64,000 nt of DNA from Candidatus Omnitrophota bacterium (GCA_043812955.1 JBDRLN010000076.1:4864-68863); one strand, 5' to 3'. Positions 5,381 to 42,034 are shown, counted from the first letter of the stretch. Notes: generated by a model not told the origin, from the letters alone. Program-made: numbers and translations.

Positions 5381-5397
5381 TTCCTCCCTGTATAATG

Positions 5398-5432
5398 TCC
5401 ACCCCGTAGGTGTATGACACCTACGGGGTGGA
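5398..5432. repeat. REP-like palindrome CCACCCCGTAGGTG-N5-CACCTACGGGGTGG (copy 1 of 4)
   Basis: Perfect 14-nt inverted repeat located between the mcsB stop and the clpC start, 18 nt upstream of the clpC ATG. The same element recurs at 37105, 42035 and 63960. Confidence 0.7.
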
Positions 5433-5437
5433 AATGG

Positions 5438-6487
5438 TTATTTTTGCAACCTCTGCCTGATAATCTCAGCCCTTTTGATATCCCTTTCCTGGGCTGTAAG
5501 TTTCTTATTCTCTATTTTTTGTAAATGCGCCGGCTGGATCACGATAAATAATTCATTTACCTGCCTACGGTCCAGGTCTTTAATAATCCCTAAATCGCAT
5601 CCCAGCCTGAGCATGGATAATAATTCAATGGTCTCCTGACTGGAAATAATATAAGCGCTTTTTAAAATACCAAAACTGCGGTTTATCTTATCTTCTAACA
5701 TCGCCCGGTTACGGGCTAGCAGCGCTTCCCGGGCCTGATTTTCCTGCTCAATTATCTGGCGGATCAAGCCATTTATATTTTCAATAATATCGGTCTCACT
5801 GTGGCCCAAAGAAACCTGATTGGAAACCTGAAAAAGATTTCCGCTGGCCTGGGTCCCTTCGCCGTAAAGGCCGCGGGTAGTAAACTGTAGTTTTGAGATC
5901 GCGGCCAGCACCTGATTGATCTGGTTAATCATTACCAGCGCCGGCAGGTGCAGCATTACTGAACCCCGCATGCCGGTCCCGGTATTAGTCGGGCAGGCAG
6001 TTAAATAACCCCAGTCCGGCAAAAAAGCGAAAGGCAATTCCTTGGCCAGAAAATCATCGATGGTACTAATAATGTTCCAGGCTTCAAAAAGATTAAAACC
6101 TGACTGCATTACCTGGGTCCGTAAATGATCCTCTTCATTAACCATTATTGAGATTATCTCTTCATCGTCTATAATAACCGCCTTGGAATCGCTCTTCTGG
6201 GCATGCTCATAGGACATCAAATGCCTTTCAATCAAGAATTGTTTATCCAGATTATCCAAGTCAGCCAGCCGAAAGACTGTTACCTTCTTTAATAGATCAA
6301 TCCTGGAGACCGTTTCTTCAACCGCGTCTAAGACATCCTTAGTCTGCTTTTTACTCGCCCAATGCGGGAAGGCGAGTTTATCCAGATTACGGGCTAAGCG
6401 GATACGGCTGGATAAAACAATATCCGAATTAGGCCCAGAGCCTTTTAACCACTCGCTGCCATGATTAACTAAGTCGTTTAAATTCAT
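5438..6487 (-). CDS. mcsB: Protein arginine kinase McsB
   Basis: ATP:guanido phosphotransferase domain with 'CPTNTGTGMR' around the active-site Cys. Encoded between mcsA and clpC. Confidence 0.8.
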   Translation of the reverse strand: MNLNDLVNHGSEWLKGSGPNSDIVLSSRIRLARNLDKLAFPHWASKKQTKDVLDAVEETVSRIDLLKKVTVFRLADLDNLDKQFLIERHLMSYEHAQKSDSKAVIIDDEEIISIMVNEEDHLRTQVMQSGFNLFEAWNIISTIDDFLAKELPFAFLPDWGYLTACPTNTGTGMRGSVMLHLPALVMINQINQVLAAISKLQFTTRGLYGEGTQASGNLFQVSNQVSLGHSETDIIENINGLIRQIIEQENQAREALLARNRAMLEDKINRSFGILKSAYIISSQETIELLSMLRLGCDLGIIKDLDRRQVNELFIVIQPAHLQKIENKKLTAQERDIKRAEIIRQRLQK

Positions 6488-11603: not shown

Positions 11604-12140
11604 ATGAGTAGAAAAATAGGTAAAAAATTTTTGTTGGTTTGGGCTATAATAACTACCGCATCCTTTAACACTTCTTTAGCGTTCGGTCAAGCGGTTAACT
11701 CAAAACCATCCCTTCCCCAAAAAAGCGGCCTAAAATCAACGATCATCATCTCAACCTTTAAAACATTAGCTAAGGCTGTTGTAGCCAGCGATACAACCAA
11801 TTTTAAAGAAACGCTCAAAAACAAAATATCCGCAATGGATGAAAATAGTTTTTATAGCTATTATCAAGATTTTTTCGAACATCTCCGGGAACGCGATTTT
11901 CTTATTAAAACTTACAACCTTACCAAAAACCTAACCCGGGAAGAAGCTATAAAAATAATAAACTCATTAAACAACCAGAAAATCTTTCAAATCATTGACA
12001 ACCTTCCCAGCCAGACAATATTTGACGAATTAAACCGTTACGCAAAAAAAACTAAGCAGGATTTAAGTAACGACAGCCAGGTCATCATAGTTAGCAACAA
12101 AGTAATAGGCTATCTTAAAAATAAATACCTGGGAAAGTAA
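11604..12140 (+). CDS. Hypothetical secreted protein (signal peptide)
   Basis: 178-aa ORF with a hydrophobic N-terminus. No recognisable motifs. Confidence 0.35.
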   Translation: MSRKIGKKFLLVWAIITTASFNTSLAFGQAVNSKPSLPQKSGLKSTIIISTFKTLAKAVVASDTTNFKETLKNKISAMDENSFYSYYQDFFEHLRERDFLIKTYNLTKNLTREEAIKIINSLNNQKIFQIIDNLPSQTIFDELNRYAKKTKQDLSNDSQVIIVSNKVIGYLKNKYLGK

Positions 12141-12162: not shown

Positions 12163-13407
12163 ATGGTAAAGAGATCTATCAGTCGGGTTTTTGTTATTAT
12201 CGCTTCTATCGCGCTCTTGCAGATTGTCGGCACAATCATACTTGCCCGGAATTTCACCAAACCAGAGATGGGATTTTATAGGCTTGTCCTAACTATGATT
12301 GAATATGGCAGCCTCTTGGCTATCGTGGGAATGGACCATTCAATAGTGCGCTTTTTCTCATCAGCCGAATCTCAATTCTCTCAATATAACTGGAAAAAAT
12401 TCTTAGGCTTTTTTCCCTTCTCTCTCATTCTTATTAGTTTCGCTTTTATTTTATTAATGAGCGTAGCCTATAAATTAAACCTTCAAATCAGCATATTAAT
12501 ATTCACCTCGATTATCCTCACCGGCTTCGCGGGGATATTATCTTCTTTTTTGCGGGCACAGAAAAAATATACACTCTCAGCATTTCTGGGACGACTTAAT
12601 TTCCTGATTTTTTTCGCGGCCGTTCTTTTATTGGTGGTTTTAAAAAGTCTCTCTGTAACAAAAACCATCCTGGCTTATCTCATCTCTTTATTAATTGCCT
12701 TAAGCATCCTAAAAACCTATGTTTTTAATAAAATTCCTTCCGGAGTGCATAATCTTCCCTCCTCAATTTTTAGAAATCGCAGCTATTATTTTGGCATGGG
12801 CCTAGCCTTCATCACAATAATACAAGCGGGTAACTTTTTTATCGCCAAAATGCTCTCCTTAAAAGACTTGGGGGTTTACGCTGTATTATTCGGAATTATG
12901 CGGCTCTTTGAATTCACCCAAGATTCTATATATTATGTTTTGGTGCCCGCGCTTAACGCTAAAAAACATATTCCGGCCAAGAATATATTCTTATCCTTAT
13001 TATTAATCGGCATAGTTATCGGTTCCTTCTATCTTGCTTTCGGCGGGATGATCGTACACTGGCTTTTTTCCGGACGCTATGATGAAGGAATACCGCTTAT
13101 CCCGTTTTTTATTATTATCGGCATAATCAAAACACTGCTTATCCTACCGACAAGCATAATCGGAGGAAAAAGTTCTGAACAAACACTACAAAGTCAATGT
13201 TATCTATTTATCTTGACCGCGTTAGTGAATATTGTATTGACCATTGTCTTTATTCGGCAATGGCAGTTAAAAGGCGTGCTGCTGGCAAACCTGGTAAGCT
13301 GGTCGCTATTGTTATTATTCACTACCCTAGGTACAAAAAAGTACTGGGGAAGCCAAACCGCTGAAAACAATCTGCAAAAAGATGCATTTTTTTATGGAAA
13401 AGGTTAA
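12163..13407 (+). CDS. Polysaccharide flippase (MOP/Wzx family)
   Basis: 414 aa with about 12 predicted TM helices, typical of Wzx. Located in a glycan locus. Confidence 0.6.
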   Translation: MVKRSISRVFVIIASIALLQIVGTIILARNFTKPEMGFYRLVLTMIEYGSLLAIVGMDHSIVRFFSSAESQFSQYNWKKFLGFFPFSLILISFAFILLMSVAYKLNLQISILIFTSIILTGFAGILSSFLRAQKKYTLSAFLGRLNFLIFFAAVLLLVVLKSLSVTKTILAYLISLLIALSILKTYVFNKIPSGVHNLPSSIFRNRSYYFGMGLAFITIIQAGNFFIAKMLSLKDLGVYAVLFGIMRLFEFTQDSIYYVLVPALNAKKHIPAKNIFLSLLLIGIVIGSFYLAFGGMIVHWLFSGRYDEGIPLIPFFIIIGIIKTLLILPTSIIGGKSSEQTLQSQCYLFILTALVNIVLTIVFIRQWQLKGVLLANLVSWSLLLLFTTLGTKKYWGSQTAENNLQKDAFFYGKG

Positions 13408-14410
13408 GCTTTCGGTTATTATTCCGGCTAGGAATGAAGAAAATAATATTGACAGGTGTGTAAATTCACTTTCCGGGGCAATCCCCGGAAATTATAGCGC
13501 TGAAATAATCCTGGTCGATTGCTCTTCTTCAGACAACACCATACTAAAAGCCAAAAGTTTTCCCATAAAAATACTGGGAACTAAACCAGACTGGCCGCAA
13601 TCACCAGCTGCCGCCCGTTACCTGGGCACTAAATTTGCAACGGGTGACTTTATTTTTTTTATTGACGCTGATATGAAATTGGAGCGCGGATTCTTAGACA
13701 AGGCTATGCGATTACTGGATGAAAATCAGCTGATAGCCGGGATAAGCGGGATCGGCAAAGAAATATATATACGCGATAACAAGGAGATCGGTTATAAACC
13801 AGATATATACCAGACTGATAAATTTAATAAAAAAGCTACCTTTCTAGGAGGAGCAGCTTTATATAGAAAGAGCTGCCTGGATGAAATAGGCGGATTTAAT
13901 CCTTATTTAAGGGCAGGGGAAGAAAGGGAATTAGCCCAACGGCTACGCAAAAAAGGTTATGACCTGCTCTTGATCCCCTTCCCGATGATCTGCCACTATA
14001 CCGCCTTAGTCGAGGTATGGGATGAATTTCTCCGGCAGAAAAGAACGCGTTTATTCTTAGGCATTGGTGAAGCTATACGCAGCTGCCACTCATTTAAATT
14101 CTTGGCGGAAACCCTGTTTTATTATAAAGAGTTTACCTTATTTTTAATTATCTCATTATATATCTTATTGATCTTAACTTATTCGCTTTTTACAGTTTCC
14201 TTAAAATATATTTATTTTTGCCTGCTGCCTTATTTGATATTATATATATTTCTAGCAGTTAAAAAACAATCTTTTAAAAAACCGGCAGTGGCAATAGTAA
14301 AATGGTTAATTATATCATCCGATATTATGCGCGGCATCAGCCTTAAGCCCAAAGACCCTTCTTCCTATCCAACAGAGGTTACTATTATTCAAGGTGAATT
14401 CAATGTTTAA
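13382..14410 (+). CDS. Family 2 glycosyltransferase with C-terminal TM helices
   Basis: 'LSVIIPARNEENNI' N-terminal GT-A motif, a DxD at 'FIDADMK', and C-terminal membrane helices. Confidence 0.65.
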   Translation: MHFFMEKVKLSVIIPARNEENNIDRCVNSLSGAIPGNYSAEIILVDCSSSDNTILKAKSFPIKILGTKPDWPQSPAAARYLGTKFATGDFIFFIDADMKLERGFLDKAMRLLDENQLIAGISGIGKEIYIRDNKEIGYKPDIYQTDKFNKKATFLGGAALYRKSCLDEIGGFNPYLRAGEERELAQRLRKKGYDLLLIPFPMICHYTALVEVWDEFLRQKRTRLFLGIGEAIRSCHSFKFLAETLFYYKEFTLFLIISLYILLILTYSLFTVSLKYIYFCLLPYLILYIFLAVKKQSFKKPAVAIVKWLIISSDIMRGISLKPKDPSSYPTEVTIIQGEFNV

Positions 14411-15569
14411 AAACCGCGATATTGTCTGCATCTCAACTATAAATTGGGATTTTTTATATCAGCGCCACCAGATACTTATGGAGCTATTTGCCAAATCCGG
14501 AAGCCGCGTCTTTTATCTTGAAAACATAAATCCTTCACCCGTAATCAATTTATCACTGCTACCTAAATTATTGAAACAGGGCAGAAAAATATTTTTTAAG
14601 CCTGCTAAAGCAGGCCTATCTAATATCCGAATAATTTCACCTTTTATCCTGCCGTTAAAAAACAAGGTCGCCGGCTGCATTAACCAGAAAGTTTTTATAA
14701 AATACCTATCGTCTTATTTAACAGGTAAAGGTGTTAAAAATCCCATGATCTGGACATACCTAGCCACTTCTTTAGCTATAGATTTAATCGCTAGACTAAA
14801 ACCTTCGCTTTTAATTTATGATTGTGTATTCGATGCCCCCCTTCATCCTTCCTCGCCAAAGGATATTTTTCAATCTGAAGTAAAATTAATCCGTTTAGCG
14901 GATGCGATTTTTACCGATAACTCCCTGCTCTTGGAAAAATGCGCTAAAATAAACCGGCAGTCTTATCTTATTCCCCCGGGAGTTATATTTGAAGACTTTG
15001 ATCAGGCATCCTTCTTAACAAAAACTAATAGTTTTTTACATATCCCCGGTCCAAGGATATGCTTTTTCGGAGGAATCGATAACCTGCGCCTGGATTTAGA
15101 GCTTATCCGCGGCATCGCGCTGGCTAAGCCTCTCTGGAGCATAATACTTCTCGGTCCGGTAATAAAAACCGATGTCTCTTTGCTTAAGCTAAAAAATGTA
15201 TATTTTAGAAGCGCTGTCGACCACAGCCTGCTGGGGTCATACCTGGCTTCAGTAGATGTTTTAATCCTGCCTTATAAAATAATCCCCTTTTCCAACTCGA
15301 TCTTTCCTGCTAAAATATTTGAGTGCCTGGCAACGGGCAAACCGATAGTTTCAACTCCCTTGCCGCAACTAAGCCTTCTAAGCCGGGGTTTGATAAAGAT
15401 AGCGGAAAATCCGAAAGAATTCATTGATTCTATTACAAGCTGCCTTAATTATGACAGCGATACAGATAAAGAAAAAAGACGCATTGCCGCGCGGGAGAAT
15501 TCATGGCTAAAACGAATTAATGAAATCCGGCGCGTATTAAATGAATTGCCGGATAGAAAGGCCAGGTAG
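14394..15569 (+). CDS. GT-B fold glycosyltransferase (group 1-like)
   Basis: C-terminal 'FECLATGKPIVST' resembles the GT4-type E-x7-E region. Confidence 0.5.
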   Translation: MNSMFKNRDIVCISTINWDFLYQRHQILMELFAKSGSRVFYLENINPSPVINLSLLPKLLKQGRKIFFKPAKAGLSNIRIISPFILPLKNKVAGCINQKVFIKYLSSYLTGKGVKNPMIWTYLATSLAIDLIARLKPSLLIYDCVFDAPLHPSSPKDIFQSEVKLIRLADAIFTDNSLLLEKCAKINRQSYLIPPGVIFEDFDQASFLTKTNSFLHIPGPRICFFGGIDNLRLDLELIRGIALAKPLWSIILLGPVIKTDVSLLKLKNVYFRSAVDHSLLGSYLASVDVLILPYKIIPFSNSIFPAKIFECLATGKPIVSTPLPQLSLLSRGLIKIAENPKEFIDSITSCLNYDSDTDKEKRRIAARENSWLKRINEIRRVLNELPDRKAR

Positions 15570-15575: not shown

Positions 15576-16979
15576 ATGAATATTTTCTATATATTTGCGG
15601 TCGGATCTGGAATTGCAATCGCTTTTTTTTCACAAGCAAGAGAGTTCTATTATCTGGCAGTATTATGCGTAATCGCGGGATTATACTTTTCTTTTAAGAA
15701 AAAGGAGATCGGATTAACCGACCTTTTAATTCTTTTTATCACAACCATCCCCTTGCATACTTTCCGTTTCGGTAGCCAGGAGCAGTTCATCCGCCTGAGC
15801 GAAATTGCCTTTATCCCCTTAGCCGCCTGGTGGTTAATAACCCGTTTTTTAAACCGGACCCAGCGGCCGCTTAAAATAAACCTGGAATCGCTTTTTATTC
15901 TGGCCTACATCATAATCAATGTCCTGGCTACAAAAAACTCGATGTTGCCTCTTATAAGTGTTAAACGGATCATTATCCTATCTTACTTATTTCTATTTAC
16001 CATAATAGTATCTGATATTATTAATACTAAAGATAAAACGGCCAAGATCTTAACCGCGATGGCGCTGATATCCGGCATTTCAGCTATAATTGCCATATTG
16101 CAAAGTATAATCCCGCAATTACTTTTTTTTAACCGAGTCCCGATCGGCAGTATTTTTGGCCTAACCTTCTATAGGGCCGGGGTAGGCTGGCATGACCCCA
16201 ATTACTACGCCCTCTATTTAGGGATGAACGCCGCAATGACATTCTGTTACATTTTAGCCACCCCCAAGAATAAACAGCTCTTATTTAAGGCCTGTTTTGT
16301 TTTACAGTTGCTGGGAATTATGGCTACATTTTCCCGCACGGTGATGGGAAGTCTTATCTTAGTTTGCCTTTACCTATTATTTTATTACGGCAAGAGGAAA
16401 TCAGCTTTAGCAATACTAACTTTAATTTTACTAAGCTCCATAATAATAACTACTACTATTCCTATAATATATAAAAAATATCCGCTGCTGGCGTCTATTA
16501 TATACAGAATCCCGGAAAGAGAAAAATTAAAGGAAGATCCAGTGTTAATTATGGGGCATCGTTATGCCGCCTTTAAAGCTAACTGGGCGATGTTTTTGGA
16601 CCACCCTATTTTAGGTGTCGGGCCATTTATGGCCATGTATAATTATGATAAATACCAACCAATCGGCTATAAATACGAGATGACGCAGCTGGCCTCACAC
16701 AACCAATACCTGCAACTTTTATCGGAAAAAGGAATATTCGGTTTTATAATATTCCTCTGGCTGATTCTATTGATTCTAAAAAAGATCTCGGCCGGCTTAA
16801 AACAACCCTTAGGCCCCGATAAAAAAACTTACCTTATGGCGCTTAAATCAGCTATATTTGTTTACCTAATCTCGTCTTTTTCTCTAGAGACCTCATACGA
16901 ATTGCAGTTCTGGCTTACAATAGGCCTAAGCCTGGCAATTCTAAAATTAATAGAAAAAGAGCGGTCTAATGTTTTATAA
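15576..16979 (+). CDS. O-antigen polymerase/ligase family protein (Wzy_C domain)
   Basis: 467-aa polytopic membrane protein with 'SRTVMGS' and 'HNQYLQLLSEKGIFG' motifs characteristic of the Wzy/WaaL family. Confidence 0.6.
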   Translation: MNIFYIFAVGSGIAIAFFSQAREFYYLAVLCVIAGLYFSFKKKEIGLTDLLILFITTIPLHTFRFGSQEQFIRLSEIAFIPLAAWWLITRFLNRTQRPLKINLESLFILAYIIINVLATKNSMLPLISVKRIIILSYLFLFTIIVSDIINTKDKTAKILTAMALISGISAIIAILQSIIPQLLFFNRVPIGSIFGLTFYRAGVGWHDPNYYALYLGMNAAMTFCYILATPKNKQLLFKACFVLQLLGIMATFSRTVMGSLILVCLYLLFYYGKRKSALAILTLILLSSIIITTTIPIIYKKYPLLASIIYRIPEREKLKEDPVLIMGHRYAAFKANWAMFLDHPILGVGPFMAMYNYDKYQPIGYKYEMTQLASHNQYLQLLSEKGIFGFIIFLWLILLILKKISAGLKQPLGPDKKTYLMALKSAIFVYLISSFSLETSYELQFWLTIGLSLAILKLIEKERSNVL

Positions 16980-18138
16980 AACTATATTATTCATTGACCA
17001 ATACCCTGGACTCTCTGGCGGGCAAAAAGTCCTCTTTACTATTATTGCCGACTTTGTCAAAAAAGGTTACCATTGCTTAGCTATACTCCCGGAAAAAGGA
17101 GAGTTATCGCAAAATTTAGCTGAACTTAAAGTAGATTCAATTTTTTTTCCAATAGGCTATTATTCGATTACCCAAAAGACTATCTTTGATTTGTTAAATT
17201 ATGCCGTCAGGCTGCCTATATTGATCTTTTTACTTACCAGGCTGATCATAAAAAAACGTCCAGGCCTAGTCTATGCTAATGGCGCCCGGACTTACTTCTG
17301 GGCTACCTTAGCCTGCTTTTTTACCAAAACCCAGCTGGTCTGGCACCTGCACAGCATATTCAATAAAGGCATGATGAAACAATTATGCATTATTTTTGGC
17401 GGCTTCCCGGTTGTCAACAAAATCATAGCGGTATCGATCGCTGCCGCAGAGCCTTTAGCAAAACTCGGCCCTAAAATTAAGATAATCTACAACGGAGTCA
17501 GCTTAAAACACGATTCGCCAAAAAACAACACTTTTAAGGATGAATTTAATATCCCTGCCGGTTCATTCCTTGTAGGAAATATCGGAATTTTAGAGGATTG
17601 GAAGAATCAAGAAGACCTGATTCAAGCGGCAAATATTATCAAGAATAAAGGAAAAACCAATATTTACTTTTTTATGATCGGAGATTCATTGTATCCAGAG
17701 CCTTCCCGCCAGAAATACAAAAAACACCTGTTAAAATTAACCGGCGAGCTCGGCCTTAAAGAAAAGGTCTTTTTTCTGGGTTTTCGTAGCAACGCCCAGG
17801 AAATTATGAAAGGTTTAGATTTAATGGTTATTTGTTCTAAGGACCCTGACCCCTGCCCGCTGGTAAGCCTGGAGGCTGCCTCTATCGGCTTGCCGATTCT
17901 AGCCGCAGATCTAGGCGGAGTAAAAGAAATGTTTATCCCGGATAACGAAGCCTTATTCTATCCCCCTTTAAAATATCAGATACTCGCAGAAAAGATAATC
18001 GCCGCTTCAGAAAATAATCCAGATCTAAAAGCCATTTCTAAAGCCGCGCTGGATAAAGTACAAAAAGAGTATACCATTGATCAATTTTTAAACAAGATCC
18101 ATTCTTCTTTAAATAGGCTACTAAACAATAATGAATAA
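16969..18138 (+). CDS. GT4 family glycosyltransferase
   Basis: GT-B fold with a C-terminal 'EAASIGLPILAADLGGVKE' motif. Confidence 0.65.
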   Translation: MFYKTILFIDQYPGLSGGQKVLFTIIADFVKKGYHCLAILPEKGELSQNLAELKVDSIFFPIGYYSITQKTIFDLLNYAVRLPILIFLLTRLIIKKRPGLVYANGARTYFWATLACFFTKTQLVWHLHSIFNKGMMKQLCIIFGGFPVVNKIIAVSIAAAEPLAKLGPKIKIIYNGVSLKHDSPKNNTFKDEFNIPAGSFLVGNIGILEDWKNQEDLIQAANIIKNKGKTNIYFFMIGDSLYPEPSRQKYKKHLLKLTGELGLKEKVFFLGFRSNAQEIMKGLDLMVICSKDPDPCPLVSLEAASIGLPILAADLGGVKEMFIPDNEALFYPPLKYQILAEKIIAASENNPDLKAISKAALDKVQKEYTIDQFLNKIHSSLNRLLNNNE

Positions 18139-19621
18139 CCATATTCATAAAATAATGTTAATCGTCCCTGCGGCCACTATTTCTTCAGAATATTCTAAAG
18201 AAATACAGCCCCCACTCGGGCTGGCTTATATTGCAGCCTGCTTAGAAAAAGACTACCAGGTAAAAATCCTGGATGCCGCATGTGAAGGCTGGTATGAAGA
18301 AAGAAAAGAAACCAACGGTTTTTTAACCTACGGCCTTGACTACACGCAGATCAGTAAGCGGATTCAGGATTTTAATCCGGATGTGGTGGGAGTTTCCTGT
18401 TTATTCAGTATGCAGCATAAAAATGCCCACCGGGTTTGTCAGGTCGCCAAAAAAACCAATATAAACATCATTACAATCATGGGCGGCGCCCATCCCAGCG
18501 TATTAGCAGAAGAAACGCTAAAGGATGATTCCGTAGACTTCGTAGTAATCGGAGAGGGCGAACAAAGCACTAAAGAACTATTGGATAGCCTGCGTGATAA
18601 TAAAGATGTCTCCTCTATAGACGGTATTGCTTTTAAGGTAAATAATAAAATATTAATTAACCCCAAAACTAAATTTATCGAAGATCTAGATAGCCTCCCC
18701 TTGCCTGCCAGACACCTCTTACCTATGGATAAATATTTTAAGATCAATCTTCCCCATGGGATATCTTCGCGTTATAGACCAAATACGCCCGTAGTTACAT
18801 CCCGGGGATGCCCGGCAAATTGCATATTCTGTTCTATCCACTCAATATGGGGATATACCTTTCGCGGACGCAGAGCAGAAAATATCATTCAAGAATTAGA
18901 ATTTATTAAAGATACCTACGATATAAAAGAAATCCAGTTTGAAGATGACAACCTTACTTTCGATAAAACCCGGGCTATGCGTTTATTCCAATTAATGGTC
19001 GATAAAAAAATCGGTCTGGCCTGGACAACTCCTAACGGCGTATCCTTATGGAATCTGGATAAAGACCTACTTTCTAAAATGAAAGAGGCGGGCTGCTACC
19101 GCTTATGCCTGGCAATTGAATCCGGCGACCAAAAACTTCTATCGGAAACAATAAAAAAGCCCTTAAGGCTACAGAAGGTACTTGAGCTCATGCGCTGGAT
19201 AAAATACTACGGATTTGAAACTGACGCTTTTTTTGTCGTCGGATTCCCCGACGAGACCAAAGGACAGTTAAAAAATACATTTGAATTTGCCAGTAAATTA
19301 AATACGGATAACACAACATTTTATTTAGCCACCCCCTATCCCGGGACCGAGCTTTTTAAAATTTGCAGCCGGGAAGGATGGCTGGATAAAGATTTCTCTT
19401 TAAGTAACCTAGGAGTAAAAAAAGCCAATATATACACAAAATATTTTTCTAGAAACGAACTTGAGAAGATAGTAGCTTATCAGACTTTAAAGTTAAAAAT
19501 CAGCCTGCTCTGGCGTAACCCGAAAGCCTTTTACCGAAAAGTACTTAAAAGATTTTTTAAAACTCCGGGCCAATTCATTTCACTGGTAAATAAATTAGTC
19601 GAAAAAACATTCTCAAGATAA
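18131..19621 (+). CDS. B12-binding radical SAM protein (class B)
   Basis: N-terminal cobalamin-binding Rossmann-like domain, then radical SAM motif 'CPANCIFC'. Confidence 0.8.
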   Translation: MNNHIHKIMLIVPAATISSEYSKEIQPPLGLAYIAACLEKDYQVKILDAACEGWYEERKETNGFLTYGLDYTQISKRIQDFNPDVVGVSCLFSMQHKNAHRVCQVAKKTNINIITIMGGAHPSVLAEETLKDDSVDFVVIGEGEQSTKELLDSLRDNKDVSSIDGIAFKVNNKILINPKTKFIEDLDSLPLPARHLLPMDKYFKINLPHGISSRYRPNTPVVTSRGCPANCIFCSIHSIWGYTFRGRRAENIIQELEFIKDTYDIKEIQFEDDNLTFDKTRAMRLFQLMVDKKIGLAWTTPNGVSLWNLDKDLLSKMKEAGCYRLCLAIESGDQKLLSETIKKPLRLQKVLELMRWIKYYGFETDAFFVVGFPDETKGQLKNTFEFASKLNTDNTTFYLATPYPGTELFKICSREGWLDKDFSLSNLGVKKANIYTKYFSRNELEKIVAYQTLKLKISLLWRNPKAFYRKVLKRFFKTPGQFISLVNKLVEKTFSR

Positions 19622-19622: not shown

Positions 19623-21071
19623 ATGAAGATATTACTTCTCAATCCTCCGTTTCTTCCCAGATACTCCCGATCCCAGCGCAGCCCCGCCGTCACAAAAAGC
19701 GGAACCCTCTATTACCCTATTTGGCTATGTTATTCGGCGGCAATCCTAGAAGAACACGGCTTTGAGATCAAAATAATCGATTCTCCTGCAGACAATTTGT
19801 CAAACCAGGAAACTCTGGAGATAATCAAAGAGTACTCCCCTGAGTTAGCAGTGATAGATACCTCAACACCCAGCATTTATAACGATGTCGAAATCTCAAG
19901 CCTTATCAAACAACAAAACCCCGAGTGTTTTACTCTGCTTGTTGGCACGCACGTTTCTGTCCTGGCCGAAGAAACATTGCTTCTATCAAATTCTATAGAT
20001 TGTATCGCCAGGGGCGAATATGATTTAACCATTCTTGAAATAGCCAATAGAATAAAACATAATGATCTAAACCTAAACTTCATAGATGGAATAAGCTACC
20101 GCGAAAATAATACTCTCCGACATAATCCCGATAGACAGCATATCGCTGAGCTCGACAAAATCCCCTTTGTTTCAAGAATATATAAAAAACATCTCAAGAT
20201 CAAAAACTATTTTTTTGCGGCGTCGCTATATCCCGAAATACAGATAATCACTGCTAGGGGATGTCCGTTTAAGTGTTTTTTTTGTCTCTGGCCGCAAACT
20301 TTTCAAGGCAGGGACTACCGCACGCGCAGCCCGGAAAATATCCTGGCTGAATTTATATATATAAAAAACAACCTCCCCATGGTTAAAGGCGTAGTTATTG
20401 AAGATGATACGTTTACGGTTGACAATAATAGAGTCCGGCGGATTTGTGAACTTCTCATAAAGGAGAAAATCGGCATAAAATGGAACGCTAACGTCAGAAC
20501 AAACCTGGACCTAGAGACCATGAAAATAATGAAAGCTGCTGGTTGTTACCTATTGATCGTGGGGATTGAAAGCACATCCCAAGATATACTGGACAATATC
20601 GATAAAGGGCTGCATTCTACCAATATAAAGACATTTTTCAATAATGCTAAAAAAACCCGCTTGCTGGTCCACGCGGCGTTTATGGCCGGAAATCCAGGCG
20701 AAACCGAAGAGAGCCTGCGGAAAGATTTATCCCTGGCTAAGATGCTCCTTCCTGATACTATTCAATTTTTCCCCCTTATGCCCTATCCGGGGACTAAGGC
20801 ATATTCCTGGGCAAAAAACAATGGTTATCTTAAAATAAATTCATTCCGGGATTACTTAAATGAGCATGGCCTACATAATACGGTAATTGACCTTCCCGGG
20901 TTATCGGGCAAACAATTGGTAAAATGGTGCAATTACAGCCGGCGCTCTTATTATTTAAGCCTTTCTTATTTCTGGTATAAATTAAAACAGGTAATTACAA
21001 ATCCCTGGTCTTGTACCCGGACACTCAGGGCATTGGCGACATTCAGAAAATATATTTTAAAACCGGACTAA
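19623..21071 (+). CDS. B12-binding radical SAM protein (class B), paralogue of the upstream gene
   Basis: Same domain architecture, with radical SAM motif 'CPFKCFFC'. Confidence 0.8.
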   Translation: MKILLLNPPFLPRYSRSQRSPAVTKSGTLYYPIWLCYSAAILEEHGFEIKIIDSPADNLSNQETLEIIKEYSPELAVIDTSTPSIYNDVEISSLIKQQNPECFTLLVGTHVSVLAEETLLLSNSIDCIARGEYDLTILEIANRIKHNDLNLNFIDGISYRENNTLRHNPDRQHIAELDKIPFVSRIYKKHLKIKNYFFAASLYPEIQIITARGCPFKCFFCLWPQTFQGRDYRTRSPENILAEFIYIKNNLPMVKGVVIEDDTFTVDNNRVRRICELLIKEKIGIKWNANVRTNLDLETMKIMKAAGCYLLIVGIESTSQDILDNIDKGLHSTNIKTFFNNAKKTRLLVHAAFMAGNPGETEESLRKDLSLAKMLLPDTIQFFPLMPYPGTKAYSWAKNNGYLKINSFRDYLNEHGLHNTVIDLPGLSGKQLVKWCNYSRRSYYLSLSYFWYKLKQVITNPWSCTRTLRALATFRKYILKPD

Positions 21072-21073
21072 AA

Positions 21074-22225
21074 ATGGCGAAATTGGTATTCTGGGTATCC
21101 TTAATAGTTATATTATACGTTCATTTTGGATACGGCGCCTTGTGTGTATTAATCAGCGTAATTTTCGGTAAAAAAACAACTAAAAATAAATCTTTTTACC
21201 CAAAACTATCACTGCTAGTCCCTTGTTACAATGAAGAAAAGATAATCAAAGCAAAGATCGAAAATATGCTAGCCTTAGATTATCCCCAAGATAAACTACA
21301 GATCATGATTGCTTCGGAATCAAATGATGCAACCAATGCGATTGCGGAAACGTACAAAAAAAGCGGAATTGAACTTTATATAAATAGCTTGAGAATCGGC
21401 AAACCTACTCTCTTATTCAACACTATTCCTTATGCCCGCGGAGAGATCCTAATATTCTCCGATGCTAACGCTATTTTTCAACCGGATGCGCTTTTAAAGA
21501 TCGCGGAAAATTTTTATGATCAATCAATCGGAGCCGTGATTGGCGCGTTAAAAATCAGTAATCCCGCTCAATCTTCTATAAGCCACGGTGAATACATCTA
21601 TAAACAATATGAGACGATAATCCGCAAAGCTAATAGCCGCCTGGGCAGGGTTTTAAACGCTGACGGTTCGATATTCGCGATCAGGAAAAGTTTATATTTA
21701 CCTATAAGCGAAGATCGAGGAGATGATTTCGAACTGATCTTACGGATATTGTTGAATGGCTACAGATGCGTATTTGAGCCTGAGGCAATCTCAAACGAAG
21801 ACGCATCGATAACCGCCAAAGCAGAAATCCTGCGTAAAATCAGAATGGTCCCCTGGTTTTTAAAAAGCTCCGTCATGCTACTGAAAGAAATGATCCATAA
21901 ATCACGCTTCGACTTAATATTTCAATTAATATCCCATAAAATATTAAGATGGTTTATGCCCTACTTCTTCATTTCCCTATTTAGCGCCAATTGCTTTTTA
22001 ATAAGCCAATCACTATTTTTTAAGTTAAGTCTTCTAAGTCAGGGGTTGGTATACCTGGGAGGGTTAATTGGAATGTATATGGCAGAGGTACAAAAAAAGA
22101 AACCCCCGGCACTGCCAGGGGCACTATACTATTTTATTATCTATAACTACGCCTTTTTAATAGGAACGCTTAAAGGGATGTTCGCGCCAGAGAAATCTTC
22201 TTCCTGGGAAAAAGTCAGGTCATAA
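21074..22225 (+). CDS. Family 2 glycosyltransferase, membrane-embedded and synthase-like
   Basis: 'LSLLVPCYNEEKII' GT-A start motif with TM helices on both sides of the catalytic domain. The likely start is the 'MAKLVFW' Met at 21074. The track ORF begins at 21011 and overlaps the upstream gene. Confidence 0.6.
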   Translation: MAKLVFWVSLIVILYVHFGYGALCVLISVIFGKKTTKNKSFYPKLSLLVPCYNEEKIIKAKIENMLALDYPQDKLQIMIASESNDATNAIAETYKKSGIELYINSLRIGKPTLLFNTIPYARGEILIFSDANAIFQPDALLKIAENFYDQSIGAVIGALKISNPAQSSISHGEYIYKQYETIIRKANSRLGRVLNADGSIFAIRKSLYLPISEDRGDDFELILRILLNGYRCVFEPEAISNEDASITAKAEILRKIRMVPWFLKSSVMLLKEMIHKSRFDLIFQLISHKILRWFMPYFFISLFSANCFLISQSLFFKLSLLSQGLVYLGGLIGMYMAEVQKKKPPALPGALYYFIIYNYAFLIGTLKGMFAPEKSSSWEKVRS

Positions 22226-22875
22226 TTTATTTCATCTGGATTAAAGTCTCTGGCTGTTTTAACCGGTTTAGCAAAGATAGTCAGAACAAGTATAAAAAAA
22301 TTAAATAGTAATGAACGTTTTTGGATATAAAAAAGGTCGAATCGCGTACGCTCTTTTATTAAACTGTCTCCTCTCCATCCATTAACCTGTGACCATCCGG
22401 TAAGCCCGGGTTTAATCGTATAGCGCATCTTGTAATTAGACACGCTGATTTCAAACTTTTCGGCGAAATATGGACGTTCCGGACGAGGGCCGACTAGACT
22501 CATTTCTCCTTTTAAAACATTTATCAACTGAGGCAATTCATCAATGTGAGTGACCCTTAAGAATTTTCCGATAAAGCTGCACCGGGGATCTGACTCCGTA
22601 CCCCATACAGGGCAACCGTCACCTTCTGAGCCTTCCGTCATTGTCCGGAATTTATAAATCATGAATCTCTTTTTATCTTTTCCATATCTTTCCTGGAAAT
22701 AAAATATCCTTCCCGGTGAATCAATCCTGACTAAACATACGGCCAGCAGAAAGACCGGAAAACTCAATAAAAGAAAAATAGCGCTTAAAATAAAGTCCAT
22801 TGTGGTATAAATTATTTCCAAGCGCCGCCTATGAAGGTATATACTCATTATCTCTTGAACGTACGTTTTGCCCAT
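22147..22875 (-). CDS. Polyprenyl-phosphate sugar-phosphotransferase (bacterial sugar transferase, WbaP C-domain type)
   Basis: 'MSLVGPRPERPYF' and 'KPGLTGWSQVNG' are hallmark motifs of the Bac_transf family. Confidence 0.8.
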   Translation of the reverse strand: MGKTYVQEIMSIYLHRRRLEIIYTTMDFILSAIFLLLSFPVFLLAVCLVRIDSPGRIFYFQERYGKDKKRFMIYKFRTMTEGSEGDGCPVWGTESDPRCSFIGKFLRVTHIDELPQLINVLKGEMSLVGPRPERPYFAEKFEISVSNYKMRYTIKPGLTGWSQVNGWRGDSLIKERTRFDLFYIQKRSLLFNFFILVLTIFAKPVKTARDFNPDEINYDLTFSQEEDFSGANIPLSVPIKKA

Positions 22876-24547
22876 AGATATATTTTAACAACTTTTCCTG
22901 GTCTGGCAAATCTATTTTTGAAAACTTGAAACCTACAACATACATATCCTTTATCGCAGAATCCCTTACGCATACTACTTCTGCGCTGACATGGATAAAT
23001 TCTTTCTCATTCAAATAAATAGCCAAAGAATACTGACTTCCTTCTTTTAAGCGGTCTCTTGAGCGGACCGCAATACCACTACCGCTGATATCTTCTATTA
23101 TAGAATAATGTTTTTGCGTTACTTTATCCGATGTGAACTCATAGCCTACGGCATAAATCCCCTTTACCCGCGGCATAGAGCGCCTCTCCTGGCTATTTAC
23201 TTTTCTTTCGCTAGATAAAACTCCGCAAATACCCACAAACATACCGAAGAATACGCCTAAGAAAATATTTAAAGGTATATTCGGACTTACTCTTTTAAGA
23301 GGAGGATAGGCTGATTCCAATATCTGGATATTCGGTAATTGTGAATCTAAAAATTTATCCCGGATCAATTCTAACTCGTTCTGTTTCTTAAGAAATAAGG
23401 CGTATATATCCTGGGATGCCTCGTAGGTCTTGGATAAAATACTATATTCTATTTGCTTTACCGCAGCCTCATCTATATAAGCAGAAATTTTATTTAGATC
23501 CTCCTTATATACTGATTTCTCGGCTTTATTGGAACTCTCCTGAACCCCGAGATATCCTATATAATCCCTATAATAATCAGCATAAACAAACATGATCTTT
23601 TCAAGTTCGCTTCTCAGATTATTTTTTAAAAGTGTAATTTGTTCATTAACTCCTATTACTTCGGGATTATTATCAGTATACTCAACGCGTAACCGCGACA
23701 AATGCGCCTCGGCCTCTTGTATCCTGCTTCTTATATCTTGTATCCAAGGGATACTGGTTAAAGATAATGTGGGATTTTCTCCATTCTCTTTACCAGAAAA
23801 ACTGGGTAAGAGAGGATAGCGAAATAATGACTCGCCTTTTTTCAGAACATCATTGGTCTTGGCTAATTCTTCTTTCAAGCGGGCAGCATACTTTTTACTT
23901 TCCAGATTGTTTTTGTCGAGCTCGATCAGATAATTCACATATAGAGGGGTTTGGGCTTGATAAAACTCCAGCTTATCTTTACCGCTGAGCTCCTTAAGGA
24001 ATACCTTGATCTTGTCTAGATCTTCTTTTACCAATACTATTTTATTATTAAGCGCTTTGAGATTGCTGCTCACCGAAGACAGCTTTAACCCGCTGCCGTA
24101 AACAATAAAATTATTTACAATAGCATTAGCCAGTTCTATCGCTTCTTTTTGATTTTGCAGGCTTACGCTCACTTCTAAAACATTAGATTCATTAAGGTAG
24201 CCGATATTGATCTTTTTTCTTATATCTTGATAGCTGAATTTATTCAATAGCCCTTTATCATGCATCTGGCTGAGAGACTTTTCAATAACCGACCGGCTTG
24301 AGATTATCTCGGCCTGACTTGCTAGAAACGCTTTATCATCTAAGGTCTGCGGCAGGAGGCCTGGGGCATAAAGATTTGATTCATTCTGAACGATAATTTT
24401 AGTTTCAGCCCTATAAATCCAAGGTGCTGCAAAAATACCCAGGACCGCAATTGAAAAGACGATAAGAAAAAGGGCAAAAAATTCCACTTTCCTTCGGATC
24501 ATTGCCCTGCCTACCTCGGATATACTTAACTCTGAACTTGATTCCAT
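22829..24547 (-). CDS. Polysaccharide co-polymerase (Wzz/PCP) with C-terminal PilZ domain
   Basis: Wzz-like N-terminal TM helix, a long coiled periplasmic region and a second TM helix. The cytoplasmic tail carries the PilZ motifs 'RRSMPR' (RxxxR) and 'DISGSG' (DxSxxG). Confidence 0.6.
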   Translation of the reverse strand: MESSSELSISEVGRAMIRRKVEFFALFLIVFSIAVLGIFAAPWIYRAETKIIVQNESNLYAPGLLPQTLDDKAFLASQAEIISSRSVIEKSLSQMHDKGLLNKFSYQDIRKKINIGYLNESNVLEVSVSLQNQKEAIELANAIVNNFIVYGSGLKLSSVSSNLKALNNKIVLVKEDLDKIKVFLKELSGKDKLEFYQAQTPLYVNYLIELDKNNLESKKYAARLKEELAKTNDVLKKGESLFRYPLLPSFSGKENGENPTLSLTSIPWIQDIRSRIQEAEAHLSRLRVEYTDNNPEVIGVNEQITLLKNNLRSELEKIMFVYADYYRDYIGYLGVQESSNKAEKSVYKEDLNKISAYIDEAAVKQIEYSILSKTYEASQDIYALFLKKQNELELIRDKFLDSQLPNIQILESAYPPLKRVSPNIPLNIFLGVFFGMFVGICGVLSSERKVNSQERRSMPRVKGIYAVGYEFTSDKVTQKHYSIIEDISGSGIAVRSRDRLKEGSQYSLAIYLNEKEFIHVSAEVVCVRDSAIKDMYVVGFKFSKIDLPDQEKLLKYIYGQNVRSRDNEYIPS

Positions 24548-24567: not shown

Positions 24568-25248
24568 TTATTTGGATGCTATATCGTACAACAAGTAAGT
24601 ATCGGCCGCCGGCCTGATTTTAGACATAAAAAAATCTAGGAAATCCCCTGTGTTGCCGATAAAACTCCTCGGCACATAGATTATATCTTTTGGTTCTAAC
24701 AAAACATTTTCACTTGTATTAGCATGGTCTAAAGCCTTATGCAGATTTACTAAAATAAATTGCGGGCACTCAGAGTAAGGTTTTCTAATTACCAATATAC
24801 TGCGTAACTCAGCATATTTAAGGTAGCCACCGGCAAGGCCGATTGATTCAAACGCCGTCATTTGGTTTTCGAGAGTGTACAATCCCGGCGTTTTTACCTC
24901 TCCTAAAACTAAAACTTTCTTAGAACGGGACTCGATAACATTAACTGAAATTTTAGGATCCTTCAGGTATACCAACAGCTTTTCGTGAATCTGATCAGCC
25001 AGAGCAGTCGTAGTCTGGCCAGCAGCCTGAATTTCCCCGGCAACCGGATAACTTATAAAGCCATCTGGACGGATAGAAAGAGTGCTTTTAAGCTCCTGGT
25101 GATTCCATACAGAAATTTCTATAATATCCCCGGTTCCTAATATATATTTTGACCCGCTTTGCTGTTGGGCATAAGAAGGCGAATTAAGCGCAAATATACA
25201 TACCACGATGTAAAATAGGGTCCTCAATTTACTTTTTAGTCTTCTCAT
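24568..25248 (-). CDS. Polysaccharide export protein, Wza-like
   Basis: Signal peptide and a Poly_export motif ('GTGDIIEISVWNHQEL'), followed by an SLBB-like region. Confidence 0.7.
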   Translation of the reverse strand: MRRLKSKLRTLFYIVVCIFALNSPSYAQQQSGSKYILGTGDIIEISVWNHQELKSTLSIRPDGFISYPVAGEIQAAGQTTTALADQIHEKLLVYLKDPKISVNVIESRSKKVLVLGEVKTPGLYTLENQMTAFESIGLAGGYLKYAELRSILVIRKPYSECPQFILVNLHKALDHANTSENVLLEPKDIIYVPRSFIGNTGDFLDFFMSKIRPAADTYLLYDIASK

Positions 25249-25589: not shown

Positions 25590-26912
25590 CTAAGATAACT
25601 TCAGCAAAGGAATATTCAGCCGGCGGCGGAAAGTCTCTCCTTTTAAAAGCTCTTGTTTGCGCCAGGCTAGATTATTTCTGGGATGAAGCCCTTTCTTAGT
25701 AGCTATGTTTGAGGCGGCAATATGAATAGTGTGTTTTCCAAAAACCTGATTTATTTCATCCACCGCACAACTCAACCTTTGCAGCTGTTCAATTTTAACC
25801 GGGTTTTCAAAAAGGTCCTGTTCATCAAATCCTTCTTCCTTAATATCATTTAAAATAATTCCGGTTGCCCGGTATACCGCTCCCGGTTGAAAAACTTCAT
25901 CAAAGATCCGGAAACAAACAGTAGTAAAATCCAGAGTAGATGAAGAATGCCGGTTGATCCTGCCCTGCATCCCTTTCGCGCTAAAATCAACTTTCCTTAA
26001 ATAAACCGTCAGGTTGCGCGCGCTTAATGAATATCTTCTTAATTTGATAAAGGCTGACTCCAAATTACGCATTAACTGGGCCTTTACCATCTGCTTATCG
26101 CCTGAGGCAGGCATAAAAGTCTTAGTCTTACTTATACTAAGATATTTTTCTTTTTTAGCGGTTGATACCGGATACACTGACGTTCCTCTTAATTCCAGCC
26201 ATAATTCCACCCCAATCTTACCCAGAATTTTTTGAGCGAATTCTTTAGGCCGGCGTACATATTCCAGGACCGAAGTTATCCCGTATTTACCTAAAAGCGC
26301 TATGGTATTCGGCCCGAACCCCGAGACCCGCTCAAGAGGGATATTTTTCAGGTACTCATGCAGTTTATTTCCCGGTAAAGCCTTAAAGCCATCCGGCTTA
26401 TTTTCCCGCGAGCAGATCTTGGCCAGAGTTTTAGAAAGGCTTAAACCCACAGAAACAGTTATATCCAGTTCTTTGCGGACCTCTTCCTTGATCCTTACGG
26501 CAATATCCGGATAAGAAGCGCGATACATCCGGCGCAATCCGGCTAGATCGCAGAAAGCCTCATCGATAGAATACTCCTCAACCTGGGGCGTAAACCTGCG
26601 GATTATATTAAAAAGCCGCTGTGAATATATACTATATAATTCATAATCGCTGGGAAGGATTATTAAGCCCGGATAGATCTTTTTAGCCTCAGAAAGAGTG
26701 ACCCCCCGTTTTATTCCCAAAGCCTTGGCTTCATAGCTGGCCGCAGAAATAATCCCTCTCTCCTGGCCGGTAACCAAAGGCTTACCTTTAAGATTGGGGT
26801 TACGGGCCTGCTCGCAAGAGGCAAAAAAAGCATCGCAATCTATATGCGCGATAGCCTGCGGATATGAAGATAAAGTGATAAAATCAGGAGTATTATTTAT
26901 ACTTACGGACAT
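25590..26912 (-). CDS. dinB: Y-family DNA polymerase (DinB/UmuC-like)
   Basis: 'DCDAFFASCE' catalytic motif, in an operon with lexA (20-nt overlap). Confidence 0.75.
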   Translation of the reverse strand: MSVSINNTPDFITLSSYPQAIAHIDCDAFFASCEQARNPNLKGKPLVTGQERGIISAASYEAKALGIKRGVTLSEAKKIYPGLIILPSDYELYSIYSQRLFNIIRRFTPQVEEYSIDEAFCDLAGLRRMYRASYPDIAVRIKEEVRKELDITVSVGLSLSKTLAKICSRENKPDGFKALPGNKLHEYLKNIPLERVSGFGPNTIALLGKYGITSVLEYVRRPKEFAQKILGKIGVELWLELRGTSVYPVSTAKKEKYLSISKTKTFMPASGDKQMVKAQLMRNLESAFIKLRRYSLSARNLTVYLRKVDFSAKGMQGRINRHSSSTLDFTTVCFRIFDEVFQPGAVYRATGIILNDIKEEGFDEQDLFENPVKIEQLQRLSCAVDEINQVFGKHTIHIAASNIATKKGLHPRNNLAWRKQELLKGETFRRRLNIPLLKLS

Positions 26913-27474
26913 TGGCGATAACTACACCGGCAATAACCAGCTCCTCCTTGGGTTCTATAGGAAGGTATTTCTTATTCGCGGCCCTTAAAATAACTTTACC
27001 TTTAAACTTCTCAAAATATTTCAGGGTCCATTCCTTATCCACGCAAGCCACCACAATATCCCCGCTTTTAGGAGTAAGATTTTTCTGGACCAAGACTAAA
27101 TCTCCGGGATGAATTCCGGCATCGAGCATGGAATCACCGCTTACCTTTAATAAATAAGTTGCCTGAGGATTAGAAATAAGATATTCATCCAGGCTCATTA
27201 AATCCACAGTCTCTTCTTCTGCCGGTGAGGGAAAGCCCGCTTGGATAAATCCTAAAAGCCGCACCGGTTTTTGTACTCCGGCCGGGATCAGCCTTCCGGT
27301 ATTATCTTTAGCGCATAACCCTAAGCCTACCAATTGATTTACCTTCTTGAAAACAGCGTTCTTGGATCTAAACCTAAAGACTTTGAGCATCTCAGAATAA
27401 GAAGGCATCCTTTTATTCTTCAAATAAAACTCGTCTAACTTATCAACCTGCTCTTTTAAATTGTTTTTATCCAT
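26893..27474 (-). CDS. lexA: LexA repressor
   Basis: N-terminal winged HTH and a C-terminal S24 peptidase domain ('SGDSM', Lys dyad). A Cheo-type box lies 17 nt upstream. Confidence 0.8.
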   Translation of the reverse strand: MDKNNLKEQVDKLDEFYLKNKRMPSYSEMLKVFRFRSKNAVFKKVNQLVGLGLCAKDNTGRLIPAGVQKPVRLLGFIQAGFPSPAEEETVDLMSLDEYLISNPQATYLLKVSGDSMLDAGIHPGDLVLVQKNLTPKSGDIVVACVDKEWTLKYFEKFKGKVILRAANKKYLPIEPKEELVIAGVVIANVRKYK

Positions 27475-40267: not shown

Positions 40268-40280
40268 TGAGCACCTCTAT

Positions 40281-42008: not shown

Positions 42009-42034
42009 TATCTTCCTCCTTATTATACCATTAT

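Follow-up and report, generated by a model that had tools for sequence, protein, structure and literature searches.

A Wzz-type polysaccharide co-polymerase fused to a predicted c-di-GMP receptor domain in a Wzx/Wzy gene cluster of Omnitrophota

The subject of this study is a gene in a 64,000-nucleotide stretch of DNA from a Candidatus Omnitrophota bacterium (GCA_043812955.1 JBDRLN010000076.1:4864-68863; the whole stretch is called the window) that encodes an inner-membrane polysaccharide co-polymerase (PCP) carrying a C-terminal PilZ domain. The protein, here called PCP-PilZ, belongs to the PCP superfamily, and its PilZ domain is, by its motifs and predicted fold, a canonical, predicted receptor for cyclic di-GMP (c-di-GMP). 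The gene is placed in a cluster for a Wzx/Wzy-dependent exopolysaccharide (EPS), and we consider it fairly probable that the tethered PilZ domains, on binding c-di-GMP, gate polymerization or export of this polymer. Judged by the searches reported here, these are familiar modules in an undescribed combination, in a family that is small and so far confined to Omnitrophota.

Architecture and topology of the fusion protein

The open reading frame (ORF) at 22829-24547 on the minus strand begins with ATG, and its product of 572 amino acids (aa) is 100% identical to the NCBI entry [quoted passage not shown] in which MAG denotes a metagenome-assembled genome. The features of the gene and its product, including the two transmembrane (TM) helices, are as follows, in window coordinates and with the evidence in parentheses (AF2, AlphaFold2; pLDDT, predicted local distance difference test).

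22829..24547, minus strand: PCP-PilZ fusion gene, stop codon included (ORF list; Pfam Wzz, GNVR, and PilZ)
24425..24481, minus strand: TM helix 1 (TM1), residues ~23-41 (Kyte-Doolittle peak 2.81; AF2 helix 20-40, pLDDT >90)
23279..24424, minus strand: periplasmic PCP domain, residues 42-423 (AF2 model; Foldseek; Pfam Wzz)
23216..23437, minus strand: GNVR region, residues 371-444, with a Pro/Gly-rich segment running into TM2 (PF13807)
23213..23278, minus strand: TM helix 2 (TM2), residues 424-445, IPLNIFLGVFFGMFVGICGVLS (Kyte-Doolittle peak 2.29; translation; AF2 helix 424-455)
22874..23188, minus strand: PilZ domain, residues 454-558, a six-stranded beta-barrel plus C-terminal helix (PF07238; AF2; Foldseek)
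23168..23185, minus strand: RRxxxR c-di-GMP-binding motif RRSMPR, residues 455-460 (translation)
23075..23092, minus strand: [D/N]xSxxG c-di-GMP-binding motif DISGSG, residues 486-491 (translation)

All three Pfam domains exceeded the curated gathering score (GA) that was used as the cutoff. Wzz (PF02706) matched residues 6-94 with 29.7 bits (GA, 25.5), GNVR (PF13807) matched residues 371-444 with 34.0 bits (GA, 27.7), and PilZ (PF07238) matched with 44.3 bits (GA, 22.5; E value, 2.4e-11) over profile positions 1-101 of 102. An initial annotation of this DNA, made from the sequence alone, had described a Wzz/PCP topology in which two TM helices enclose a periplasmic region of about 380 aa, and had proposed the PF07238 search as a check on the C-terminal domain. 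The search came out in favor of a PilZ domain, and the topology was borne out by hydropathy and AF2 secondary structure, which gave two TM helices with a periplasmic span of ~382 aa between them. TM1 is preceded by a 22-aa cytoplasmic N terminus with the conserved pattern S-E-L...RRK in the aligned N-terminal segments of the family. A K/R-rich stretch follows TM2 (6 K+R in 17 residues), and the C terminus, as well as the N terminus, is therefore placed in the cytoplasm. Residues P416, P422, N427, G435, and G439 are conserved in at least 90% of 24 PCPs.

The full-length AF2 model (mean pLDDT, 86.7; 65 aligned sequences as input) runs from TM1 through an alpha/beta base (residues 44-130) and long helical hairpins (133-401) into a TM2 helix that extends to ~455, where a low-confidence hinge (454-457) coincides with the RR motif and is followed by a beta-barrel (466-545) and a C-terminal helix. 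When the model was compared with the PDB by Foldseek, Wzc ranked at the top (9r68, 9r64, and 7nhr; E values of 1.7e-12 to 5.7e-11), followed by WzzE (8p3p), WzzB (6rbg), and KpsE (8tsh).

A Walker A motif and the AAA_31, CbiA, and ParA families are all missing from the protein by Pfam and motif scans. Membership in the PCP-2a class was accordingly rejected, as PCP-PilZ has no bacterial tyrosine kinase (BY-kinase) domain (Walker A/A'/B, Tyr-rich tail). The initial annotation had the PilZ domain standing in place of the PCP-2a kinase tail. The topology and the structural match to Wzc agree with this as a description of the domain order, but the closest sequence models are kinase-less chain-length determinants, and the ancestral protein may therefore never have carried a fused kinase that could be replaced.

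The PilZ domain and its c-di-GMP signature motifs

Translation confirmed both PilZ signatures that had been read in the C-terminal domain, RxxxR within RRSMPR and DxSxxG as DISGSG. The RRSMPR motif sits on a predicted flexible tether ~10 residues past TM2, with pLDDT below 50 at residues 454-457. The pattern RRxxxR-(15-45)-[DN]xSxxG occurs once in the whole window, in the PCP-PilZ ORF; this chance control covered, in all six frames, every stop-to-stop segment of 60 codons or more. Across the family, the spacer between G439 (in TM2) and R456 ranges from 16 to 33 residues and is loose in composition, and the RRxxxR motif thus lies ~10 to 27 residues beyond the membrane. Canonical PilZ domains with both motifs are described as still binding c-di-GMP in the preprint by Galperin and Chou (10.1101/814665).

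The isolated C-terminal domain was modeled with a pLDDT of 77.4 and a predicted template modeling score (pTM) of 0.70, with strands at 21-25, 34-42, 46-51, 60-66, 72-84, and 91-100 and a helix at 102-119 (model numbering). The top ~49 PDB matches of this model in Foldseek are all PilZ domains, and the highest-ranked ones are mostly c-di-GMP-bound structures. They include MotI (5vx6; E value, 1.7e-7; template modeling score on the query [TMq], 0.71-0.73), YcgR (5y6g), MapZ (5xly), Alg44 (4rt0), BcsA (4p00), MrkH, and VCA0042. Searching PDB sequences with the family PilZ profile also placed MotI/YpfA (5vx6) first, with an E value of 2.2e-5 and both motifs aligned. With the C-terminal 127 aa as a lone query sequence, the PDB yielded no PilZ match, only a chance match to RNA polymerase III (E value, 1.1); the link to known structures needed the family profile and the fold search.

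The C-terminal helix of the domain carries a family-specific motif, EREKLxNYLY, which could be a partner-binding surface. In its general form, (E/D)(R/Q)EKL(L/I)xY(L/I)Y (residues 547-560, nucleotides ~22868-22909), the helix motif is strongly conserved, and it is missing or shortened in the subgroup of P0022, P0026, and P0064.

Relatives and origin of the fusion

When 1.84 billion cluster representatives were searched exhaustively with HMMER, 1224 PCP-like matches were obtained (E ≤ 1e-3). Relatives were chosen from the best 150 of these, and fusions in other phyla may lie beyond them. The resulting set of 24 sequences, including the query, was selected mainly for matches running into the PilZ region. 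A PilZ domain was present in 18 of the 24, which amounts to at least 18 representatives (50% identity clusters) with the fusion, down to ~20% identity. The survey of Wzz-PilZ fusions that the initial annotation had suggested thus recovered a family sharing the architecture. Both RxxxR and [DN]xSxxG are retained in 17 of the 18 PilZ-bearing representatives. Residues R456, R460, and G491 do not vary among the 15 full-length fusions, and S488 is conserved at 90% or more; the same pattern holds in the 19 aligned PilZ domains, which are otherwise only 19 to 34% identical to that of the query, the two closest relatives apart. Conservation of the key Arg and Ser residues in orthologues had been set beforehand as a point on which the PilZ assignment could fail, and on this point the assignment held.

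The orthologues are 20 to 86% identical to PCP-PilZ, share its architecture and synteny, and come from independent metagenomes, MAGs, and one single-cell genome. In a neighbor-joining tree of the PCP part (residues 1-445, no bootstrap), all 15 fusions fall in one clade. Because they group together on the PCP part alone, the tree suggests a single fusion event. Each of the five members with a taxon name belongs to Omnitrophota: the MAG of the window, two marine glass-biofilm MAGs, one single-cell genome, and a MAG 95% identical to the divergent representative P0018. A genome survey with a single pattern for the PilZ C-terminal helix, derived from 8 closer sequences and thus favoring close relatives, found three loci, all in Omnitrophota. 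Word-index searches for homologues, whether started from the query or from the family profile, returned only four fusion relatives and missed members present in the collection.

Genomic context

PCP-PilZ is encoded by the second of three genes in a minus-strand operon, in which it is preceded by a gene for an outer membrane polysaccharide export (OPX) family protein and followed by one for a phosphoglycosyl transferase (PGT). This export operon converges on a plus-strand operon with the order Wzx, glycosyltransferase family 2 (GT2), GT1, Wzy, GT4, two B12-binding radical S-adenosylmethionine (radical-SAM) enzymes, and a membrane GT2. The neighboring genes are as follows.

24568..25248, minus strand: short OPX (Wza-family) periplasmic export protein, 226 aa, upstream of PCP-PilZ (Poly_export, 84 bits; SLBB_2)
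22147..22875, minus strand: small monotopic PGT, the initiating enzyme, downstream of PCP-PilZ (Bac_transf, 197 bits)
21011..22225, plus strand: membrane-anchored GT2 with a KILRW motif, convergent (Glyco_tranf_2_3, Glycos_transf_2; TM segments)
12163-13407, plus strand: Wzx flippase (Pfam)
13382-14410, plus strand: GT2 (Pfam)
14394-15569, plus strand: GT1 (Pfam)
15576-16979, plus strand: Wzy polymerase (Pfam)
16969-18138, plus strand: GT4 (Pfam)
18131-19621, plus strand: B12-binding radical-SAM enzyme (Pfam)
19623-21071, plus strand: B12-binding radical-SAM enzyme (Pfam)

The OPX, PGT, Wzy, Wzx, and glycosyltransferase genes were found by Pfam, in support of the earlier placement of the fusion in a Wzx/Wzy-dependent cluster. 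By predicted gene content, the two operons together make up the full locus for a Wzx/Wzy-dependent EPS, with genes for lysyl-tRNA synthetase and UmuDC on its flanks.

The OPX gene ends 20 nucleotides before the start of PCP-PilZ, and the ATG is preceded by a GGAAGAAAG stretch. The best matches of the OPX protein (Poly_export plus one SLBB) are the XrtA-system export and EpsY models, both below cutoff. Because of its small size, its one SLBB domain, and these best models, the protein looks like the short periplasmic type, which in Myxococcus requires a separate outer membrane beta-barrel. No such beta-barrel partner is visible in the cluster. The PGT scored 257 bits against TIGR03025, below its cutoff, and its true start probably lies downstream of 22829, as orthologue alignments begin at residues 12-27. 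The membrane GT2 gene (21011-22225) and the convergent PGT gene overlap by 79 nucleotides at their 3' ends. A 3' overlap of ~80 nucleotides is also found in the related loci L001, L002, and L003/L013 and is not found in L006, L007, and L012. The KILRW motif of this GT2 is a variant of the processive QxxRW motif. The radical-SAM pair suggests that the repeat unit is modified by an unusual radical reaction, e.g., C-methylation; one or two B12-binding radical-SAM genes are kept in every related cassette (L001-L008, L012, and L013). At the head of the plus-strand operon, a 178-aa ORF (11604-12140, plus strand) matched no significant Pfam family.

The cassette is kept in relatives in the order OPX, PCP-PilZ, PGT, facing the convergent membrane GT2, B12-binding radical-SAM, GT4, Wzy, and, further on, Wzx genes, at 26 to 86% identity of the PCP, and the neighboring proteins are 45 to 84% identical across the related loci. 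Four of these loci (L004-L006 and L012) have the same gene set and order as the plus-strand cluster of the window. OPX adjoins the PCP in related cassettes for which the upstream flank was recovered and is missing in L011, while GT2 adjoins PGT except in L007 and L008, where three genes are inserted between them. A conserved 1036-aa protein is encoded upstream of the fusion gene in L010 (2843-5953) and L011 (4828-7938); in L010 it lies directly upstream of OPX and has weak T2SS-K, lamin-tail, and HhH matches.

The remainder of the window includes genes of other kinds, of which those named here lie on the minus strand. A UmuD/UmuC pair (S24 peptidase and Y-family polymerase; 25590-27474) lies directly upstream of the EPS export operon. 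A ClpC-like AAA+ protein and a McsB-like guanidino kinase are encoded at 2939-6487, the glycine cleavage P and T proteins within 38816-43163, and two radical-SAM/BATS proteins, one with a HypC-like N terminus (HydE/HydG-like), within 45580-48259. Complex-I/Mrp-like modules and a group-4-like NiFe-hydrogenase large-subunit homologue are located within 50137-58474, and acetate kinase is located within 60957-62183. As judged from these predicted functions, the housekeeping genes would suit an Omnitrophota bacterium that lives anaerobically by fermentation. Scanning the window for Rfam families and tRNAs gave no match at gathering thresholds, c-di-GMP riboswitches included.

Comparison with known systems

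Wzc of the Escherichia coli K30 group 1 capsule (7nhr, 9r62/9r68) shares with PCP-PilZ a short N terminus in the cytoplasm and the order TM1, periplasmic region (alpha/beta base and long helices), GNVR, TM2, and cytoplasmic regulatory domain, and it is likewise encoded beside an OPX (Wza-family) gene in a Wzx/Wzy cluster. The sequence identity between the two proteins is ~12%. In Wzc, however, the regulatory domain is a P-loop BY-kinase of ~250 aa with a Tyr-rich tail, whereas here it is a PilZ beta-barrel of ~105 aa, and the autophosphorylation of Wzc and its dephosphorylation by Wzb contrast with a presumed input from a diffusible second messenger. The search for a BY-kinase in the window and loci L001-L011, by tblastn with six BY-kinase domains (E ≤ 1e-3) and in the Pfam tables, was negative.

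Alg44, which serves alginate production in Pseudomonas aeruginosa (4rt0), is similarly a co-polymerase held in the inner membrane, either bitopic or anchored. It has a large helical domain in the periplasm and, on the cytoplasmic side, a canonical PilZ domain that is a significant structural match to that of the fusion (E value, ~4e-5). Binding of c-di-GMP to Alg44 is required for polymer production. Alg44 differs in having an N-terminal PilZ domain, one TM helix, and a periplasmic HlyD/MFP-like domain and in being synthase-dependent, with Alg8, whereas PCP-PilZ has a two-TM Wzz/GNVR scaffold and belongs to a Wzx/Wzy pathway. Membership in the Alg44 family was rejected because of the reversed domain order, the two-TM scaffold, and the lack of an HlyD match. 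BcsA (4p00, 5ej1) resembles PCP-PilZ in carrying its PilZ domain after the last TM helix, with RxxxR on the linker between them, and is a structural match (E value, ~2e-5). In BcsA, the PilZ domain packs on its own glycosyltransferase domain and frees a gating loop; PCP-PilZ, in contrast, has no catalytic domain.

The best NCBIfam models are those of the kinase-less determinants of the XrtA/PEP-CTERM and Eps systems, which match residues 13-446 (E value, 4e-20) and have a periplasmic domain of similar length. PCP-PilZ scored 71.5 against TIGR03007 (pepcterm_ChnLen; cutoff, 278.85) and 71.8 against TIGR03017 (EpsF; cutoff, 422.75). The TIGR03007/EpsF proteins end after TM2 and use a separate BY-kinase, whereas PCP-PilZ has the fused PilZ domain; membership in either family was rejected on these scores and on the lack of a partner BY-kinase in the window and L001-L011. 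MotI/YpfA/DgrA of Bacillus subtilis (5vx6) is the closest solved PilZ protein by both sequence profile and structure, but it is soluble, combines a PilZN-like domain with a PilZ domain, and has the flagellar stator as its target, an unrelated function and context. PCP-PilZ would work most like Alg44 and is built most like Wzc.

Proposed mechanism and alternative explanations

PCPs form rings, and several PilZ domains would therefore hang below the membrane on flexible tethers of 10 to 27 residues. As its level rises, c-di-GMP would occupy both the barrel face and the tether with its RRxxxR motif; the likeliest form is an intercalated dimer of the kind seen in Alg44 and BcsA. The bound ligand would order the tether and alter the association of the cytoplasmic domains with one another, with the N terminus of the protein, or with Wzy, Wzx, or the PGT, and the PCP/OPX machine would thereby pass into a polymerization- and export-competent state. 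A tethered association switch is favored over a rigid TM2 lever because the length and composition of the tether vary. Octamer assembly in Wzc is under the control of the kinase ring and its phosphorylation cycle, without which polymerization and export do not reach a high level. By this analogy, the PilZ/c-di-GMP module would assume the role of the BY-kinase autophosphorylation cycle, and the regulated step is more likely to be high-level polymerization or export (on/off) than fine modal chain length. The output of a methylated or otherwise radical-SAM-modified EPS would thus be coupled posttranslationally to the signal for sessile or biofilm growth. That a c-di-GMP/PilZ ring has replaced the BY-kinase cycle as the PCP-OPX assembly and activation switch in the Omnitrophota lineage is a more tentative proposal, which we hold as possible and somewhat short of probable.

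Several points weigh against c-di-GMP gating by the fusion. We have inferred the binding, its stoichiometry, and the sign of the c-di-GMP effect, and EPS production is itself a prediction for an uncultured organism. The full-length Foldseek matches have low template modeling scores (0.26 to 0.37), because the monomer model holds the long helices in another conformation. Scanning of the window and L001-L011 with regular-expression motifs found no GGDEF, EAL, or HD-GYP motif, and thus no diguanylate cyclase or phosphodiesterase, in ~110 kb of Omnitrophota sequence; this is a weak test that says little about the genome as a whole. Binding of c-di-GMP is apparently not preserved in every member, since the fusion in L011 (8001-9737, Omnitrophota MAG JAHJHC010000061.1) reads ERPCISR, with Pro at the position of R456, and P0022 has DVGSAG where others have DxSxxG. 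The context of L011 is rearranged, with an Ig-domain protein following the fusion gene and no OPX, PGT, or GT2 homologue found by tblastn, and this copy may be a decaying or repurposed paralogue. Finally, the PCP of P0020/L012 (GCA_043826625.1, JBDRPW010000054.1, 2164-3471), which is nested within the fusion clade and encoded in the same cassette, is 435 aa long and stops after TM2, with only 160 nucleotides between it and the PGT gene. The machine can presumably work without PilZ; the existence of a natural PilZ-less variant of the same cassette also fits PilZ as a regulatory add-on.

The PilZ domain might bind c-di-GMP and act on another protein, the PGT, which commits Und-P to this pathway, or the membrane GT2, with the PCP serving as the membrane anchor of a c-di-GMP-dependent activator or inhibitor. 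The PGT gene directly follows the fusion in every cassette except L011, the GT2 abuts the PGT convergently outside L007 and L008, and a tether of 10 to 27 residues could reach neighboring membrane proteins. There is also a precedent in Myxococcus xanthus, where a single-domain response regulator activates a Wzx/Wzy pathway posttranslationally at the PGT (PMC12802240). Adjacency to the PGT is, however, ordinary gene order in many EPS clusters and not specific to such a target, and stable PGT-PCP complexes are not known; we regard this explanation as unlikely. A synthase-type arrangement is more doubtful still and the least favored of those that assign PilZ a function: PCP-PilZ would be an Alg44-like co-polymerase for the KILRW GT2, with synthase-type polymerization within or alongside the Wzx/Wzy cluster. 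This GT2 is present in all cassettes and adjoins the PGT in most, and the known PilZ-controlled polysaccharide machines are all synthase dependent (PMC12220298; PMC12802240). Yet the cluster has the full set of Wzx, Wzy, PGT, PCP, and OPX, which requires no synthase, and the GT2 scored far below cutoff against the NCBIfam models of PgaC, NodC, and BcsA (e.g., 69 versus 422 bits). It also has only two hydrophobic segments, insufficient for a translocating channel, and the Q of QxxRW is replaced by K.

The remaining alternatives do without signaling. As a structural or protein-protein adaptor, PilZ would serve for oligomerization or docking where other PCPs have the kinase ring, either because it does not bind c-di-GMP in vivo or because the organism produces none. 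Nonbinding PilZ domains exist, e.g., the PilZ protein of type IV fimbria assembly, which gave weak matches in the family-profile search, and the Arg lost in L011 and the regular-expression scan for c-di-GMP enzymes would be in keeping with this. Nonbinding PilZ proteins typically have neither RxxxR nor DxSxxG, however, whereas in this family purifying selection acts strongly on the two motifs in a domain that has otherwise diverged to 19 to 34% identity. GGDEF domains, together with small pilZ genes, have moreover been reported across Omnitrophota (bioRxiv 10.1101/2023.11.21.568195). An adaptor role is improbable, slightly less credible than action on the PGT or GT2. The source is a MAG, and the fusion might have arisen by misassembly, a frameshift, or an overlong gene call joining separate PCP and PilZ genes. 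This was ruled out with near certainty, as the same unbroken frame is present in independent Logan, JGI, ENA, and NCBI assemblies and in a single-cell genome and the TM2-tether-PilZ junction aligns throughout the family.

Implications for Omnitrophota

Direct c-di-GMP control of polysaccharide machines is textbook knowledge for synthase-dependent systems, e.g., BcsA, Alg44, PelD, PgaCD, and BgsA. Control by PilZ and c-di-GMP has been assigned to synthase-dependent pathways (PMC12220298; PMC12802240), and the posttranslational regulation of Wzx/Wzy pathways is described as incompletely understood and centered on BY-kinases (PMC12802240; PMC12220298). No paper describing a fusion of PCP, Wzz, or Wzc with PilZ was found in the literature searched. 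The sections of the Galperin and Chou PilZ survey considered here list other architectures and do not mention PCP-PilZ (10.1101/814665).

If gating of the kind proposed is real, direct control by c-di-GMP would extend to the most widespread route of polysaccharide assembly. Should the PilZ ring also have replaced the BY-kinase cycle, PCP-PilZ would be the first case in which a second messenger directly and posttranslationally controls the co-polymerase of a Wzx/Wzy pathway, and it would amount to a natural experiment indicating that the cytoplasmic domain of a Wzc-type PCP is a swappable oligomerization switch. The fusion offers a handle on what this domain does in Wzc-type PCPs, and a simple one, because a ligand-switchable domain is easier to manipulate than a multisite phosphorylation cycle. 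Omnitrophota are an uncultured phylum of ultrasmall, possibly host-attached bacteria. A ComFB-CheR protein from this phylum has been listed with the c-di-NMP receptors (PMC12448109). For c-di-GMP signaling in this phylum, PCP-PilZ would be the first concrete predicted pair of effector and output, and the surface polymers that it may control are likely to be central to the Omnitrophota lifestyle.

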